Assembly: GCA_947652375.1 (NCBI GenBank)
Contig: CANTCS010000004.1
Span: forward strand, 542-64,541
DNA length: 64,000 nt
Reading direction: 5' to 3'
DNA from: an uncultured Mollicutes bacterium
GTDB taxonomy: Bacteria; Bacillota_I; Bacilli_A; RF39; UBA660
The notes beneath the pieces were generated by a model. It did not search any database and was not told the origin of the DNA. It was given only the letters and a program-made list of their open reading frames with translations. Positions 26,465-39,619 of this stretch are shown here, piece after piece (position 1 is the first letter of the stretch; every line of letters begins with the position of its first letter). Made by a program: the position numbers and the translations under genes.

Positions 26465-28396
26465 ATGAGAGAATATGGATTCATTAGAGTAGGAGCTATA
26501 GTTAATCGCTTAGCTTTAGCTAATCCAATAGAAAATGCAAAAGAAATTATAAAGATGATTAAAGATGCAACAAAAAAAGGAGTAGGGATTGTTACTACTC
26601 CAGAATTAAGTCTAACAGGTTATACTTGTCAGGATTTATTTTTACAAGACTGTTTGATTGATGAGGCATATGAAGCTTTAAAAACAATCTTAAAGGAAAC
26701 TGAGAAAATTAATATTATTAGTATTTTAGGTATGCCCATTAGAGTAGATAATCAACTGTTTAATTGTGGAGTAGTTATAAGTAAAGGAAAGATTTTAGGA
26801 ATTGTTCCAAAAACTTATGTACCAAATTATTCTGAATTTTATGAAAAAAGATGGTTTCAATCTAGTAGTAATCTAATTAGTAATGAAATAAATATTCTAG
26901 ATCAAATAGTTCCAATTGGTACTAATATCCTTTTTAAAGATAAAGAAGTTTGTTTTGGAATAGAAATTTGTGAAGATTTATGGTGTGTAAATCCACCAAG
27001 TAATGCTCATACCTTACATGGAGCAAATATCATCTTTAATTTAAGTAGTAGTAATGAAGTTATTGGTAAATATGAGTATCGAAAAAATTTAGTTTCTATG
27101 CAATCTGCTAAAACTATTAGTGCTTATGTATATGCATCAAGTGGAATTATGGAATCAACATCTGATATTTTATTTAGTGGAGCAAGTATGATTTATGAAA
27201 GTGGTTCACTTTTATGTGAAAATGAAAGGTTTAGTTTAGAAAGTAATTTGATTTATACAGATATTGATGTTTCAAAAATAAATAATGATCGTAATAAAAA
27301 TATAAGTTATATGGGTGTAGTTGGAAATGAGAAATATCGTTACATAGATATAGAAGTAATTGATACAAAAAAAGAATTATCAAGAACTTTTCCAGAGTAT
27401 CCGTTTGTTCCAAAAACAGAAGTAAAAAGAGATGAAAGATGTAGAGAAATTTTTACTATTCAAGCATCTGCTCTTGCTAGAAGACTTTTAACATTAGGAA
27501 AACCAAAATGTGTAATTGGAATTTCAGGAGGACTAGATTCAACATTAGCTTTCTTAGTTATAGTTGAAGCGTTTAAAAAAATTGGGATGGATATGAAAAA
27601 TATTATTGGAGTTACGATGCCAGGTTTTGGTACAACAGGAAGAACATATAATAATTCTTGTGAGTTTGTTCGTGAGTATGGAGCAACTCTAAAAGAAATA
27701 GATATCAAAGCTGCTTGTATTCAACATATGAAAGATATTGGACTTGATGAAAATGATAGAACAATTGCTTATGAAAATACTCAAGCACGTGAGAGAACTC
27801 AAATTTTAATGGATATTGCGAATATGGAAGGTGGCCTTGTTATCGGAACAGGTGACTTATCAGAATTAGCATTAGGTTGGTGTACTTATAACGGAGACCA
27901 TATGAGTATGTATTCAGTAAATACATCTATTCCTAAAACACTTGTTAGGTATTTAGTAAGATGGGTTGCTGATACAGCTGATATAAAAAAGAAAGAAATA
28001 ATTTATGATATTTTGGATACACCAATTTCTCCAGAATTATTACCTCCTGACGAAGCAGGAAATATATTACAAGAAACAGAATCAAGTATTGGTCCTTATG
28101 TTTTACATGACTTTTTCCTATATCATTTCTTAAGATATGGAGCAACTCCGAAGAAAATTTATTATCTTGCTAAAAATACTTTTAAAGAAAGTTTTAGAAA
28201 TACAGAAATATTAAAATGGTTAGAAGTATTTATAAAAAGATTTTTTACTCAACAGTTTAAACGTAATTGTGTACCAGATGGTGTGAAAGTAGGAAGTATT
28301 TCTCTATCTCCAAGAGGAGATCTTAGAATGCCAAGTGATGCTAGTTATGCTATTTGGTTAAAAGAAATAGAAGAATTAAAGGAACTATCAAAATAG
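26465..28396 (+). CDS. nadE: Glutamine-dependent NAD+ synthetase
   Basis: N-terminal CN-hydrolase domain plus a C-terminal NAD synthase domain with the SGGLDS PP-loop. Confidence 0.95.
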   Translation: MREYGFIRVGAIVNRLALANPIENAKEIIKMIKDATKKGVGIVTTPELSLTGYTCQDLFLQDCLIDEAYEALKTILKETEKINIISILGMPIRVDNQLFNCGVVISKGKILGIVPKTYVPNYSEFYEKRWFQSSSNLISNEINILDQIVPIGTNILFKDKEVCFGIEICEDLWCVNPPSNAHTLHGANIIFNLSSSNEVIGKYEYRKNLVSMQSAKTISAYVYASSGIMESTSDILFSGASMIYESGSLLCENERFSLESNLIYTDIDVSKINNDRNKNISYMGVVGNEKYRYIDIEVIDTKKELSRTFPEYPFVPKTEVKRDERCREIFTIQASALARRLLTLGKPKCVIGISGGLDSTLAFLVIVEAFKKIGMDMKNIIGVTMPGFGTTGRTYNNSCEFVREYGATLKEIDIKAACIQHMKDIGLDENDRTIAYENTQARERTQILMDIANMEGGLVIGTGDLSELALGWCTYNGDHMSMYSVNTSIPKTLVRYLVRWVADTADIKKKEIIYDILDTPISPELLPPDEAGNILQETESSIGPYVLHDFFLYHFLRYGATPKKIYYLAKNTFKESFRNTEILKWLEVFIKRFFTQQFKRNCVPDGVKVGSISLSPRGDLRMPSDASYAIWLKEIEELKELSK

Positions 28397-28542
28397 TTCT
28401 TTTTTTTATAAAAAAATCTACAAATTATTAAATTTTGATTAAATTATTATTATATGTAAGTCTTATATTTATTTAATTTTGAATAATTTGCGTTTAAAGA
28501 AAATACTTGCTAATATTCTATTAATAATGTTATAATGAATAT

Positions 28543-28655
28543 GTCAAGGAAACTTGCATAAAATAAAAAAGGAATACCTAGTTTTGAAGAGTTAGGTACT
28601 ATTCCAAAAAATAAATGTTCAAGTACCGACTTTAAACAGTTGATACTATTTTTAT
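28543..28655 (+). ncRNA. Predicted antisense RNA (type I antitoxin candidate), copy 1
   Basis: TTGCTA-18-TATAAT (28507-28536). The conserved 5' segment GAATATGTCAAGGAAACTTGCATAAAATAAAAAAGGA is shared with copy 2. Terminator AGTACCGACT/AGTTGATACT plus a U-run at 28622-28655, overlapping the 3' end of the toxin ORF. Confidence 0.4.
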
Positions 28656-28724
28656 TAAAATGATTAAAATCACAATAATAAGGAGAATTATGATAGTACA
28701 AAGATATTTCTCTGTTTTTTTCAT
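28632..28724 (-). CDS. Small hydrophobic peptide, type I toxin candidate (30 aa: MKKTEKYLCTIIILLIIVILIILIKIVSTV)
   Basis: GGAGGTG lies 6 nt before the ATG. Single TM peptide. The SD can pair with upstream CTCCTTT. Terminator with U-run downstream. A paralogous module is at 39296-39385. Confidence 0.6.
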   Translation of the reverse strand: MKKTEKYLCTIIILLIIVILIILIKIVSTV

Positions 28725-29045
28725 AATTTTCACCTCCTTTCACTTTTTAAAGTAAAGGAGAATAGTACCTAAACTAACTAAATATTCCTGAATTAATTAT
28801 ACCGAACATTTGTTTTTAATACAATAGCTTTATTATAGTTTGATAAATTATTGTAGAGTAGTAAAATTAATTTAAAACTATAATGAGGTATAGAAGAAAT
28901 ATATGATATCAAAATTTTTTTATATAAGGAATTATAACAATATTTATAAGAAATATTTTTAAAACTAGTTTATTTTTTATGGGACTTAACTTTAAGATTA
29001 TATAAATATTTTAGGTGTTTTGAAAGTTTTTATTTGGAAATATAT

Positions 29046-29093
29046 AAAAAAGTGTTGACATTTTATTATGTTATTAATATAATATTAATAACA
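29046..29093 (+). promoter_or_regulatory. Promoter (TTGACA-17-TATAAT) overlapped by a perfect 23-bp palindrome: candidate NAD-regulon operator, copy 2
   Basis: TTGACA 29055-29060, TATAAT 29078-29083, palindrome GTTATTAATATAATATTAATAAC 29070-29092. Confidence 0.75.
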
Positions 29094-29224
29094 CGACTGA
29101 TATTTTTTTTAAAATCAGATATTAACAAAATATTAATAAGAAGAATATTGTTAGTAATTAAATTGGTAAAATTGAAAGTTATAAATAAAAGTAAAAGAAA
29201 TAAAAAAGAGAGGATTATATTTTT

Positions 29225-30322
29225 ATGAATAGTAGAAAATTAAAGTTAATTGTTATGCCTAATTGTAAAAAGTTGGGTGAGAGTATTGATTATGAATTAA
29301 AAAGGATAAATAAAACTGATAATAGTTTTTTAGTGGATTTTAAACCAGATCGATTTGGTAATGGTGAAGGTAAGGTAAAAATTAATGAAAGTGTTAATAA
29401 TACAGATTTATATATATTAAGTGATGTTGGAAATTATGATATTAGTTATAACTATCATGGGAGAACTCATTACATGTCGCCTGATGAGCATTATGAAGAT
29501 ATTAAAAGATGTATTGCTGCAACTAGTGGTCATGCGTCTAAAATAAATGTTTTGATGCCACTACTTTATGAATCTCGTCAGCATAAAAGAAAAGGTAATG
29601 AATCGCTTGATTGTGCTATAGCATTACAAGAACTTGAACATATTGGAGTTAATAATATTATAACTTTTGATGCACATGATCCAAGTGTTTCTAATGCTAT
29701 ACCTCGTCTTCCTTTTGAAAATTTTTATCCAACACATAGAATATTAGAAGAATTGATTGATAATGAAGAGATAAAAGATTTGTTAGTAATTAGTCCAGAT
29801 ATGGGAGCTATGGAGAGAGCAAGATATTATGCTGATATGTTGGAAAGTGATGTCGGAGTTTTTTATAAAAGACGTGATTTATCAAAAGTTGTTAATGGTA
29901 AAAATCCAATAGTTGAGCATATGTATATGGGAGCAGATCCTAAGGGAAAAGATGTTATTATAGTAGATGATATGATAGCATCAGGTGGTTCAATTTTAGA
30001 AGTTGCTTCTAATTTACGAAAAAAAGGAGCAGACAAAATATTTTTAATAGCAACATTTGCATTATTTACAGAAGGAACTGAAAAATTTGTAGAAGCTTTT
30101 GATAAGGGGCTATTCAACAAATTATATTCAACTAATTTAAGTTATGTTCCAGAAAGTATTACAAATAAAAATTGGTATCAAGAAGTAGATTGTTCTAAGT
30201 ATATTGCAGAAATTATAAATACTCTTAATAAAAAAGAAGATATTGAAGGATTATGGAATGGTAAAGAAAAAGTAATTAAAAAAATAAAACAAAAAAAGAA
30301 ATTAGAATTTGAAAACAGTTAA
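29225..30322 (+). CDS. prs: Ribose-phosphate pyrophosphokinase (long PRPP synthetase paralogue)
   Basis: PRPP-binding loop VDDMIASGGS and N-terminal Prs domain motifs. 365 aa. Confidence 0.88.
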   Translation: MNSRKLKLIVMPNCKKLGESIDYELKRINKTDNSFLVDFKPDRFGNGEGKVKINESVNNTDLYILSDVGNYDISYNYHGRTHYMSPDEHYEDIKRCIAATSGHASKINVLMPLLYESRQHKRKGNESLDCAIALQELEHIGVNNIITFDAHDPSVSNAIPRLPFENFYPTHRILEELIDNEEIKDLLVISPDMGAMERARYYADMLESDVGVFYKRRDLSKVVNGKNPIVEHMYMGADPKGKDVIIVDDMIASGGSILEVASNLRKKGADKIFLIATFALFTEGTEKFVEAFDKGLFNKLYSTNLSYVPESITNKNWYQEVDCSKYIAEIINTLNKKEDIEGLWNGKEKVIKKIKQKKKLEFENS

Positions 30323-36098: not shown

Positions 36099-36158
36099 TG
36101 AAAATATTTATTTTTTTGTTAAATGTGTTATAATAACGTATTAAAAAGAGGGGTTGTT

Positions 36159-37961
36159 ATGGCAAAAGTAAAATATTTTATTGCAAATATGCCTTTAAAA
36201 GAATGGTGTCTTTTAAATGGTTATTCTTATAGTACTGCAACTAATTTTATTGCTAGAAACAAGAATAAATATTTAATTGTTGATGATTTATTAGAAGCAT
36301 TAGAAGATTATTTAAAAAATATGAATACCTTTTATTATTATGAAGGGTTGCTTTTTAAAGAATGGTGTAATTTAAATGGATATTCATATAATACAGCTTT
36401 TTCAATATTAAATAAACTTAAAAGTGAAATTACAGATAAAGATGAGCTAGTTAAACAGACTGTTCTGTTACTTAAGGAAACACCACGAAAAACACAGTAT
36501 TTTTATAAAGGGCAAAATTTAATAGATTATTGTAGAGAAAATGATCTTAATTATTCAACGATTCTTTCAAGGATTAGAAAAATAAAGAAATATAATAAAG
36601 ATATAGAAAATGATGCTGCTGTTATTATTGCTATTGAAGATTATACTGATACAAGATGTAAATTTTTTTATAATGCTATGTCTTTAAAAAGATATTGTGA
36701 GTTAAATGGTTATGATTATCCTTATATTTATCGTCAAATTAAAGATTTAGATGAGAATGATGCAAAAGATAAAATGAAAGCTTATTTTGAAAATGCTCCT
36801 GTAAAGATAAATGGAAGTTATAAAATAGCAGGTCTAAGTTTAAGGCAATATTGTATAAAAAATAATTATAATTATTCAACTGTGAAATCATATATTAGCT
36901 TTGTAAAGAAAGAATATCCTTCTTTTACACAAGAAGAAGTTGTTATCACTGCTATAAATTATTATAAAATTAGATATATTGATAATGAAAAGTTTTTTTA
37001 TAAAGGAGAAAAACTTATAGATTTTTTAAAAAGAGTTAATTGCTCTTATAAAATTTTTATGTATTATTTAAGTCATATGAGAGTGGATGATTATAATTTA
37101 TCTGATGAAATAGTAACTAAATGTCTTTATAAATGTAGAATAAAATTACGTAATGATTTATTTAAAAGTTTAGAAGAGATAGATTATAATACTTGTTTAG
37201 AAATTGCTAAGAATTTATCAATTGATGAAGACTGTTTAAATAAATTAGTAGGATATGGTTTTTCTTATAAAAAGGCTATAAATTTTATTTGGTATTTTGG
37301 AACTTTTAATGTTAATAAGTTAATTATTAATGATGAACAAATAAAAAAAATAATTATGAAAGATGTATCAAGGAATATGGATTTACTATTATTAATAGGT
37401 TATTATAAAAGTGGTTTAAGTGATACAAGAAATTTAATTATTGAAAAGGTTTATTTATCTTGTATGGCTATTTTAAATAAATTATTAGAAGTATACTCAC
37501 TTTTTAATCAAGAAGTAAAAGAAGAATTAAAATGTCAATTGTATTTATTAATACTTGAATTTATTGAAAAAACTAATAGTAATAGTTTAGAGGAAATTAA
37601 TAGTTATTTGAATAATTATATAAGAGGTAAATTATTAAGTAAAATTTTAAAGTATCTTGAAGAAATTAAAGATATAAGTTTAAATCAAACGTTAAATAAC
37701 GATGAAAAAACTAAGTTAGATTTTATAGTTTCCAAAAATAGTATTGACAGAGAATATATAAGTAATGAATTATTTGAAAGTATATTAACTCTTTCTTTTA
37801 TAGAACAAAAGGTTATTATATTATTTTATCAGAAACAGTTTACGAAAGAGGAAGTAGCGTTAAAGTTAAATATTACTGTTCAGGAAGTAGTTGATATTAA
37901 AAATACAAGTTTAGAGAAATTACAAAAGAAGATAAAACCGAATGTAAAAATAAAAAAGTAG
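36159..37961 (+). CDS. Sigma-70 region-4-containing protein with six N-terminal ~55 aa HTH-like repeats
   Basis: Repeats of the form (Y/F)FYxGxxLx(E/D)(W/Y)CxxNGYxYST... occur six times. C-terminal LSFIEQKVIILFYQKQFTKEEVALKLNITVQEVVDIKNTSLEKL resembles sigma region 4.2. TGTTATAAT extended -10 upstream. Confidence 0.7.
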   Translation: MAKVKYFIANMPLKEWCLLNGYSYSTATNFIARNKNKYLIVDDLLEALEDYLKNMNTFYYYEGLLFKEWCNLNGYSYNTAFSILNKLKSEITDKDELVKQTVLLLKETPRKTQYFYKGQNLIDYCRENDLNYSTILSRIRKIKKYNKDIENDAAVIIAIEDYTDTRCKFFYNAMSLKRYCELNGYDYPYIYRQIKDLDENDAKDKMKAYFENAPVKINGSYKIAGLSLRQYCIKNNYNYSTVKSYISFVKKEYPSFTQEEVVITAINYYKIRYIDNEKFFYKGEKLIDFLKRVNCSYKIFMYYLSHMRVDDYNLSDEIVTKCLYKCRIKLRNDLFKSLEEIDYNTCLEIAKNLSIDEDCLNKLVGYGFSYKKAINFIWYFGTFNVNKLIINDEQIKKIIMKDVSRNMDLLLLIGYYKSGLSDTRNLIIEKVYLSCMAILNKLLEVYSLFNQEVKEELKCQLYLLILEFIEKTNSNSLEEINSYLNNYIRGKLLSKILKYLEEIKDISLNQTLNNDEKTKLDFIVSKNSIDREYISNELFESILTLSFIEQKVIILFYQKQFTKEEVALKLNITVQEVVDIKNTSLEKLQKKIKPNVKIKK

Positions 37962-39042: not shown

Positions 39043-39118
39043 GTTCAGATAGTCTAAGTGGATAAAATATTTCCCTCCGACGGAAATGTTAAGGGTTCGA
39101 ATCCCTTTCTGAACGCCA
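39043..39118 (+). tRNA. tRNA-Arg (anticodon CCG), CCA encoded
   Basis: Folded by hand. 7-bp acceptor GTTCAGA/TCTGAAC. Anticodon stem TTTCC/GGAAA with loop CTCCGAC. T arm AAGGG-TTCGAAT-CCCTT. D loop AAGTGGATA. One C-A mismatch in the D stem. Confidence 0.7.
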
Positions 39119-39189
39119 TTATGTAAACATGTCAGTAACAATAGAAAACGCACTTGATAATGATGTGTATTTTATGTTATTATGAATAT

Positions 39190-39305
39190 GTCAAGGAAAC
39201 TTGCATAAAATAAAAAAAGGAAATACTTAACTTTGGCTAGTTGAGTACTTACCTAAATATTTAGATTTGTACTTAATCTTTTGCTAGATTGAGTACTATT
39301 TTTTT
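39190..39305 (+). ncRNA. Predicted antisense RNA (type I antitoxin candidate), copy 2
   Basis: TTGATA-18-TATTAT (39154-39183). Conserved 5' segment shared with copy 1. 10-bp terminator stem 39269-39278/39287-39296 plus a T7 run, overlapping the toxin stop codon. Confidence 0.45.
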
Positions 39306-39385
39306 ATGCATAGAATTATTAAAGAGACTATTAATAAAATGATAATTAATATTAGAAATGAGATTAACAAATCTTTTTTCTTCAT
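39296..39385 (-). CDS. Small hydrophobic peptide, type I toxin candidate (29 aa: MKKKDLLISFLILIIILLIVSLIILCIKK)
   Basis: AAGGAGGC lies 8 nt before the ATG. The SD can pair with upstream GCCTCC. Single TM peptide. Paralogous organisation to 28632-28724. Confidence 0.6.
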   Translation of the reverse strand: MKKKDLLISFLILIIILLIVSLIILCIKK

Positions 39386-39619
39386 AATATCAAGCCTCCT
39401 TTCTCATGAGTTGGAGGCAAGTACTCAACAGTTTAGTATTTTCTAATAAAAATTATACTATAAAGGAAAAACTAAAAAAGTGAACAATTTTGATAATTTA
39501 TATTATACTTATATTAGTTAAAATTATTACTATTTCTTATATTATTAGGGTTAAAAATTGGAAAGAGATTAAAGAAATTTTAGAAAATATCTAATCTTCA
39601 TTTAATCAAGGAGGGAAAT

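Follow-up and report, generated by a model that had tools for sequence, protein, structure and literature searches.

The 64-kb window analysed here (64,000 nucleotides of contig CANTCS010000004.1 from an uncultured Mollicutes bacterium, with a G+C content of 20-29%) contains, between the nadE and prs genes, two short convergent genes that quite probably constitute a chromosomal type I toxin-antitoxin-like module, its transcripts and the toxicity of its product being predicted. On the minus strand, a putative toxin gene encodes a 30-residue peptide with a single predicted membrane helix; on the plus strand, a second gene would give rise to an antisense RNA with full complementarity to the toxin mRNA over its last codons and 3' untranslated region (UTR). 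An earlier sequence-only reading of the window had proposed this layout, which is now supported by the retention of each structural element across dozens of diverged relatives. The module belongs to an apparently undescribed family, of a known kind, that extends across uncultured gut Bacilli, and the window carries a second copy which that reading, sound as to the first, had overlooked together with the family itself.

The relatives were collected with an exact 26-nt seed from a block shared by the two copies of the window (copy 1 in the nadE-prs spacer, copy 2 beside a tRNA gene), in a collection holding one genome per species, where it matched at least 119 loci. Among the matches listed, 82 of the 102 loci with enough upstream DNA keep an intact hydrophobic open reading frame (ORF) of 24-30 codons together with a Shine-Dalgarno (SD) sequence; the ORFs stop 66-109 nt before the seed, encode hydrophobic runs of 19-21 residues and sort into six subfamilies, A-F (Table 1). 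The hosts, again among the matches listed, are nearly all metagenome-assembled genomes (MAGs) of uncultured Bacilli, 'Tenericutes', Erysipelotrichaceae, Candidatus (Ca.) Ventrenecus and Ca. Onthousia, and the titles of the MAG records point to the gut of rabbits, mice, chickens, ruminants and humans. Several MAGs have two or three seed matches, a single contig holds two exact-seed copies in each of L045 and L083, and nhmmer adds second copies at still other loci. The modules occur in several copies, are unevenly distributed between strains and are lodged in differing contexts.

The peptide gene and the predicted end-to-end pairing of its mRNA

When folded, the minus-strand RNA of copy 1 (236 nt) reaches a minimum free energy (MFE) of -66.9 kcal/mol, against -36.9 +/- 4.0 for dinucleotide shuffles (z = -7.5; 0/200 as good), and about 30 bp join its first 30 nt to the 35 nt that precede the U-run. 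A pairing of the 5' leader with the 3' end of the same mRNA had been proposed from an inverted repeat of 14-16 nt flanking the ORF; the pairing itself is found, over about 30 bp rather than 14-16, and the inverted repeat is present with its right arm displaced by 1 nt, as a perfect 13-mer (28592-28604 versus 28760-28772) that is the sole perfect pair of this word in the 64 kb. The same architecture recurs in the family, since the MFE fold of 77 of 79 unique predicted mRNAs joins their first 40 to their last 55 nt by at least 15 bp, with a median of 27. In a covariation test based on a MAFFT alignment of 75 mRNAs (A3), the RNAalifold consensus consists of the 5'-3' pairing alone and comprises 20 pairs, of which 16 show compensatory double changes. 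Standard pairs occupy 94.8% of the cells, compared with 31-48% after the 3' partners are slid by 1-3 columns, and the covariation score of 0.589 falls to 0.10-0.15 when slid and is reached by 0/500 shuffles. The helix contains many G-U pairs (29/75 at one position, for example) that would be C-A mismatches on the other strand; being valid on one strand only, they assign the helix to the toxin strand. Taken at the level of sequence, it is strongly supported that the 5'-3' structure of the mRNA is under selection. Moreover, in most of the 82 modules printed, TATAAT or a one-off variant of it lies 6-7 nt before the 5' arm, and in most of them the 3' arm ends at the U-run, boundaries that fit the ends of an RNA and not those of a DNA repeat.

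The remaining elements of the toxin gene of copy 1 are where they had been placed: a TTGTAT-17-TATAAT promoter can be read directly from the sequence, the leader holds a CTCCTTT able to pair with the AAAGGAG of the SD region, the GGAGG core lies 8 nt before the ATG of the 30-codon ORF, and the bases of the 3' arm can alternatively form the terminator hairpin GGAATAGTACCTAAC...CTAGGTATTCC, which is bulged and followed by T6-A-T4. An anti-SD hairpin is visible in every subfamily among the printed modules, and leader segments fold below their shuffles (mean z = -1.9), with 51 of 79 under -1.64. The predicted sequestration of the SD is likely. Folding of the whole mRNA was also considered as evidence for sequestration and was discarded, the leader-shuffle control being almost as high.

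The ORF is coding, to judge from its conserved length, its SD, its start and its pattern of substitution. Differences between codon positions follow the order 3 > 1 > 2 in every subfamily, and the ratio of non-synonymous to synonymous differences per site (pN/pS) is 0.20-0.42 within subfamilies, with the exception of subfamily A, where it is 0.70. The C-terminal lysine codons AAA AAA of subfamilies B and C and of part of subfamily E are the complement of the U-run of the antisense terminator. A phmmer search of 1.8 billion representative proteins recovered four relatives of the copy 1 peptide, all of subfamily A and ending in KIVPTV, and none of the peptide versions of the window occurs in a collection of 15 billion proteins, from which it follows that gene callers almost never call such peptides. 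A 77-aa ORF at 28510-28743, already held to be spurious in the sequence-only reading, is rejected as a gene: it is missing from the protein collection, it runs through the terminator and the antisense promoter, and the four recovered homologues read the 30-codon frame instead.

A coding ORF is also what would be expected of a small, harmless protein of the membrane, for example part of a membrane complex or its regulator, whose level would be tuned by the cis-antisense RNA and which would not be a toxin at all. The sub-threshold database hits of the peptides indeed fall in membrane-spanning segments of ordinary membrane proteins (KdpF and SecE, for example), and a pN/pS below 1 indicates that the peptide sequence matters. 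The modules, however, are multi-copy, patchy and of varied context, unlike a subunit gene, which would be expected beside the genes of its partners; the toxin genes decay often where the antisense gene is kept, and a heavily locked mRNA is typical of genes whose product normally must not be made. This makes a benign role unlikely.

The antisense gene and its link with tRNA genes

On the plus strand of copy 1, the TTGCTA-18-TATAAT promoter proposed earlier is present, carries a TG extension and scores 10/12 in a promoter scan. The predicted RNA, which folds at z = -3.2, has the length of about 110 nt that had been suggested, its coordinates bear out the overlap with the toxin 3' UTR and last codons, and it ends at a stem, here of 9 bp, followed by a run of T residues. 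In the family, the predicted antisense RNAs measure 105-125 nt and three hairpins (stem-loops, SL) recur: SL1 at the extreme 5' end (AUGUCAAG-GAAA-CUUGCAU), after which comes the linker AAAAUAAAAAAG; SL2, complementary to the toxin 3' arm; and SL3, which lies over the stop codon and precedes the U-run. At 65 of 80 loci the antisense orientation is the one in which the SL3 region folds more stably. Outside the seed, the promoter reads T109 T103 G100 n n A108, 17 nt, T114 G113 n T114 A113 when counted over 114 unique upstream regions; this TTGnnA-17-TGnTAnnAT signal is, by its sequence, a promoter of the sigma-A type with an extended -10, and it is kept with or without an upstream tRNA gene.

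One near-identical 5' stem-loop and A-rich linker are common to all toxin subfamilies among the seed-collected loci, and in copies found by nhmmer that lack the SL1 of the seed the hairpin is kept with a changed sequence (AUGGAG-GGAA-CUCCAU, CAAG-UAAA-CUUG or GCAA-GAAAAA-UUGC). A stabilising 5' stem-loop is the simplest reading of SL1. In about 20% of the loci the antisense gene is intact and the toxin gene next to it has decayed or is absent: some 13 of them keep the span of the antisense RNA alone, and the others have frameshifted, truncated, startless or interrupted ORFs. These orphans, the position of the best-conserved part of the RNA in its non-overlapping 5' end and the fixed distance of about 70 nt from a tRNA gene at 44/109 loci would suit a tRNA-linked small RNA with targets in trans or a protein partner; in that case the peptide mRNA would be secondary, as a sponge or passenger. 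Yet orphan antitoxins are also expected under the toxin-antitoxin model, the conservation of SL1 is in part an effect of the seed, given that diverged copies change its sequence and keep the hairpin, and the ORF has a coding pattern of substitution and an mRNA with its own covarying structure; it is thus very unlikely that the plus-strand RNA is the main product. 

At 44 of 109 loci among the matches listed, the seed lies 36-126 nt from the end of a tRNA gene, most often at 70-72 nt; these genes, for tRNAs of Leu, Met, Arg, Thr, Ala or Lys, always share the orientation of the antisense gene. Between the tRNA and the antisense start there is a small covarying hairpin and a terminator-like hairpin that holds the antisense -35. 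This arrangement may reflect co-transcription, insulation or simply a favoured landing site. A bolder proposal starts from the spacing of about 70 nt after tRNA genes of at least six amino-acid identities at 40% of the loci, the -35 within the tRNA terminator hairpin and the shared 5' domain. It is that the antitoxin is wired to tRNA transcription, being supplied or shaped by read-through from growth-rate-controlled tRNA promoters or by the nucleases of tRNA maturation, or else that the family guards the integration hot spots that flank tRNA genes; it is improbable. If wiring by read-through or processing were true, release of the toxin would be coupled to a fall in tRNA synthesis, and a single host factor would have a common handle in the shared 5' domain.

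Membership of the module in a tRNA-integrating island was considered and rejected. Set against L039, L074 has foreign sequence in place of the body of the tRNA, and the junction with that sequence leaves the module on the chromosomal side. As a separate observation, a recurring AAAGTTGTTGTACTTCATCCTTTAGG joined to GCACCA replaces the tRNA body by some modules (L074, L112, L128, L043, L045 and L141) and resembles the terminus of an element with tRNA 3' ends as its integration sites; the toxin leader of L093 contains this sequence as its reverse complement.

The second copy, damaged modules and the nadE-prs spacer

Copy 2 was found by scanning the window for short hydrophobic ORFs with a preceding SD, and the nhmmer profiles of the family detect only these two copies in the 64 kb. 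Its layout repeats that of copy 1, from TATAAT through a 5' arm, an anti-SD GCCUCC facing GGAGGC and the ORF to a hairpin over the stop codon, a 3' arm and a U-run, and its mRNA folds at z = -6.3 with the same end-to-end pairing; its arms and its peptide are unlike those of copy 1. The antisense gene of copy 2 begins 64 nt downstream of tRNA-Arg(CCG). What the two copies have in common at the level of exact sequence is a 29-mer (28535-28563, identical to 39182-39210) within an exact run of 36 nt by reading, T-tract included, which sits just past the U-run and corresponds, on the plus strand, to the antisense -10 region and the first bases of the RNA. On the upstream side, the region of tRNA-Arg and copy 2 adjoins a 612-aa ORF (36123-37961, plus strand) with about nine repeats of a motif of about 35 aa ('...EWC.LNGYSYSTA...'), the C-terminus of which resembles sigma-70 region 4.

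Table 1. Features of the two modules of the window (positions in window coordinates) and peptide patterns of the six subfamilies.
Feature	Position	Strand	Description
Copy 1 toxin promoter	28796-28824	-	-35 TTGTAT 28824-28819, 17-nt spacer, -10 TATAAT 28801-28796; predicted start ~28790/28789
Copy 1 predicted toxin mRNA	28565-28790	-	~225 nt; nhmmer family profile matches 28789-28565, E = 6e-30
Copy 1 5' arm of long-distance pairing	28760-28789	-	AGGAAUAUUUAGUUAGUUUAGGUACUAUUC; fold, inverted repeat, covariation in 75 mRNAs
Copy 1 anti-SD/SD hairpin	28733-28760	-	CUCCUUU (28760-28754) versus AAAGGAG; SD GGAGG 28737-28733
Copy 1 ORF	28632-28724	-	30 codons, MKKTEKYLCTIIILLIIVILIILIKIVSTV, subfamily A; ATG 28724, stop 28634-28632
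Copy 1 3' arm of long-distance pairing	28571-28605	-	U-run 28570-28565; alternative terminator hairpin 28605-28571
Copy 1 antisense promoter	28507-28536	+	TTGCTA, 18 nt, TG-n-TATAAT; promoter scan 10/12
Copy 1 predicted antisense RNA	28541-28656	+	~110-115 nt; nhmmer antisense profile E = 9e-17
Copy 1 SL1	28541-28559	+	AUGUCAAG-GAAA-CUUGCAU
Copy 1 A-rich linker	28560-28570	+	between SL1 and SL2
Copy 1 SL2	28571-28605	+	complement of toxin 3' arm
Copy 1 SL3 terminator	28622-28647	+	9-bp stem 28622-28630 / 28639-28647; U-run to 28656
Copy 2 putative toxin gene	39212-39457	-	-10 TATAAT 39457-39452; mRNA ~39445-39212; nhmmer E = 3e-42
Copy 2 ORF	39296-39385	-	MKKKDLLISFLILIIILLIVSLIILCIKK, subfamily B
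Copy 2 putative antisense gene	39155-39322	+	-35 TTGATA 39155-39160, -10 TATTAT 39178-39183, RNA ~39188-39322
tRNA-Arg(CCG)	39043-39118	+	directly upstream of copy 2 antisense gene, same orientation
Subfamily A			M[RK]K.EKYLCTIIILLIIVILIILIKIVPTV
Subfamily B			MKKKDLLISFLILIIILLIVSLMILCIKK
Subfamily C			MKTKTFIIKVLKLIAIILFLLIIMIVVIKK
Subfamily D			MKKRTFIIKVLRYIAIILLLLTLLVIAIKI
Subfamily E			MSKKDFLIFSLIIIILLLIVLLFVILK
Subfamily F			MTKREFSQFIIILLLFLVVIILLLK

The recurrence of the module raises the question as to whether it is a miniature mobile element or simple repeat, in which the inverted repeats would mark the two ends, with an ORF and promoters that had arisen by chance in DNA of 25% G+C. 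Such an element would explain why inverted repeats flank a core of about 170 bp, why there are multiple copies with presence or absence between strains, and why assembly contigs break at the edge of the module. It would not explain arms that covary (16/20 pairs), with G-U pairs valid on one strand, that begin 6-7 nt past a -10 box and end at a U-run, nor an ORF with codon-position bias and a pN/pS below 1, and there is no match in the phage and plasmid collections or the viral contigs. Sequence-conserved arms free of strand-specific constraint, the mark of a miniature inverted-repeat element, are not what was found. As for the breaks, nine Logan contigs (L002-L010) with an identical nadE all stop exactly 168 nt past its stop codon, which is 30 nt into the 36-nt block common to both copies (28535-28570, 39182-39218); an insertion polymorphism was rejected as their cause, since a stop 30 nt into a shared block fits an assembly graph halting at a repeat, for an assembler whose k we take to be 31, and not an insertion boundary. 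An explanation by mobile or repeated DNA is accordingly extremely improbable.

The genes on either side of the copy 1 module are those named at the outset of the sequence-only reading, with CN_hydrolase and NAD_synthase domains in nadE and a Pribosyltran domain in prs; the exact NadE and Prs proteins of the window cluster with named members from 'Bacilli bacterium' MAGs. They are part of a larger NAD cluster comprising NAPRTase, NUDIX, radical SAM, nadE, prs, nadD, cinA, nrtR and NAD kinase genes. The spacer between nadE and prs (window 28397-29224; loci L011-L029) is a hot spot of variation among close strains. The module is present at 99.5% identity with an extra 148-aa ORF in four loci (L012, L015, L016 and L018), two loci (L013 and L014) have spacers of 272 and 380 nt without it, and a more distant lineage has three other, unrelated genes in its place; the module alone and the module with a His_Phos_1 gene are also seen. 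In a sister strain with the same locus (L011, L017 and L020) the module is present in a damaged state: a 1-nt deletion turns the toxin ATG into TTG, the SD GGAGG has become GAAGA, the toxin -35 no longer has its original sequence, the 3' arm has lost one C and the 5' arm no longer has the G that paired with it, and the antisense -10 has gone from TATAAT to TATAAG. 

Downstream of the spacer, a consensus promoter (TTGACA-17-TATAAT, 12/12; window ~29055-29093, plus strand) precedes prs-nadD-cinA-nrtR-nadK and is overlapped by a perfect palindrome of about 25 bp, TGTTATTAATATAATATTAATAACA, which is invariant in all related strains. This palindrome is a candidate operator for a repressor of the NAD regulon, NrtR being encoded downstream in the relatives. 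A last side observation concerns L065 (3685-3902, minus strand), where a subfamily B toxin gene with an intact ORF has precisely lost the U-run, the linker and SL1; this copy, without a normal antitoxin start, may be silenced.

A predicted mechanism and its known counterparts

Two features of the type I class are found at the sequence level: a hydrophobic peptide of fewer than 60 aa with one membrane helix and a translatable ORF (24-30 codons), and an overlapping antisense gene with its own promoter and terminator. The frequent decay of toxin genes beside a retained antisense gene is an indirect sign of the toxicity predicted for the peptide. Several points nevertheless weigh against a toxin-antitoxin module. 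In subfamily A, to which copy 1 itself belongs, the pN/pS of 0.70 denotes weak constraint at the protein level, the last codons of the ORF are constrained by the antisense terminator as well, and the family peptides do without the charged C-terminal tail of Fst-type toxins. The toxin -35 of copy 1 matches TTGACA at 3/6 positions by count, its promoter lacks the TG extension found in many relatives and was not called on the minus strand by a consensus promoter scan, and a consensus scan called no terminator on either strand of copy 1, the A+U-rich hairpins, bulged on the toxin strand, possibly falling below the G-C and stem criteria of the tool. The local leader hairpin has a z of only about -1.9, and complete pairing of the SD pentamer is seen in 71% of real mRNAs as compared with 56% of leader-shuffled ones, a figure poorly separated from chance. 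The seed lies inside SL1, so that the invariance of SL1 is a matter of ascertainment and an intact toxin without an antisense gene is undetectable by design; a toxin copy without SL1 or U-run does exist, in L065, and its own -10 looks damaged.

If the toxin-antitoxin reading holds, the module may work as follows. On synthesis of the toxin mRNA, its first 30 nt or so would pair with the 35 nt or so before the terminator U-run and close the molecule. Closed in this way, the mRNA would have its two ends protected from exonucleases and would stack on the local anti-SD/SD hairpin, which would make the primary transcript stable and poorly translated. The antisense RNA would present a 5' SL1 capped by a GNRA loop, a single-stranded A-rich linker, and SL2 and SL3, of which the linker could begin pairing at the U-rich 3' tail of the mRNA and SL2 and SL3 at the loops of the complementary hairpins. 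Pairing would then extend to a duplex of about 90 bp, leading to double-strand-specific cleavage or fixing the untranslated fold. Should the antisense RNA be lost or the mRNA 3' end be trimmed, the lock would open, the peptide would be made and membrane damage would ensue. From the arrangement of the module we infer transcription, the inertness of the locked mRNA, its decay upon duplex formation, the toxicity of the peptide, the order of these events and the nucleases that would carry them out.

The peptide and the RNAs match no family in the collections searched. Six subfamily representatives gave nothing above threshold in Pfam and NCBIfam, with sub-threshold noise from transmembrane segments only, and no match in PHROGs; the statement that the peptide belongs to no family that can be named holds good for these three resources. 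An Rfam search of 27800-29800 at E up to 10 found nothing in 28500-28830, and at the Rfam gathering thresholds 18 loci yielded tRNAs alone. Comparison by blastn with phage and plasmid DNA collections gave no match, nor did the 26-nt seed in viral contigs, and an origin in phages or plasmids accordingly finds no support there.

Catalogues of type I systems probably rest mostly on cultured bacteria, and such systems are hard to detect because their toxins are tiny and their antitoxins are RNAs. To judge by the titles of the MAG records, this family comes entirely from uncultured low-G+C gut Bacilli. Its 80 or so natural variants in six toxin subfamilies amount to a covariation data set on the silencing of mRNA, and it supplies the seed of a covariance model for annotating such loci in MAGs. 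According to one paper, the type I systems known to date are confined to Proteobacteria, Firmicutes and Tenericutes (PMC12390103).

Among described systems, likeness of design can be set beside difference of sequence. Fst/RNAII (the par locus of pAD1) and the Fst/Ldr toxins share with the new family the convergent genes in Firmicutes, a single-helix toxin of about 30 aa, and a structure at the 5' end that limits translation, in the new family by prediction. Fst, however, has a long acidic/basic C-terminal tail, whereas the new peptides carry their charge at the N-terminus and end in K or KK only; Fst/RNAII has one shared bidirectional terminator instead of separate terminators for each RNA; and the 5' direct repeats that give pairing in Fst/RNAII are not seen in the new family. 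Neither the Fst nor the Ldr family appears among the Pfam and NCBIfam hits of the six subfamily representatives at E up to 10.

The bsrG/SR4 and txpA/RatA systems of Bacillus subtilis, to which the layout had been likened from the start, combine a gene for a small hydrophobic peptide with a convergent antisense gene overlapping it at the 3' ends, an antitoxin with its own promoter and terminator, an SD held in a helix, and a chromosomal locus in a Gram-positive host, and the new family is alike in all of these respects, in that of the SD by prediction. By comparison with both, its peptides are shorter (24-30 aa), a 5'-3' pairing of about 25-30 bp, the 3' arm of which is itself the target of the antisense RNA, would close its mRNA, and its modules are not prophage-borne, as far as matches to phage and viral sequences can tell, and often follow a tRNA gene. 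No similarity to TxpA/BsrG or RatA/SR4, or to any other entry, rises above threshold in Pfam, NCBIfam or Rfam.

Anti-SD elements and long-distance 5'-3' pairing are key determinants of type I toxin mRNAs (PMC8594479), and in hok/Sok of plasmid R1 and aapA1/IsoA1 of Helicobacter pylori, as would be the case here, a 5'-3' lock keeps the primary transcript inert and the SD is sequestered (PMC8594479). The antisense RNAs of these two systems pair with the 5' translation-initiation region, whereas that of the new family would pair with the 3' end of the mRNA; hok/Sok has the mok leader ORF, whereas the printed leaders of the new family show no overlapping upstream ORF; and the hosts are Proteobacteria and Campylobacterota, unlike those described here. 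The subfamily representatives have no Pfam hit to the Hok_Gef domain, which places them outside hok/Sok by sequence. Without sequence membership in either group, the design of the module, as predicted, is thus that of a 3'-overlapping convergent antisense gene of the bsrG/txpA kind joined to an end-to-end mRNA lock of the hok/aapA1 kind.

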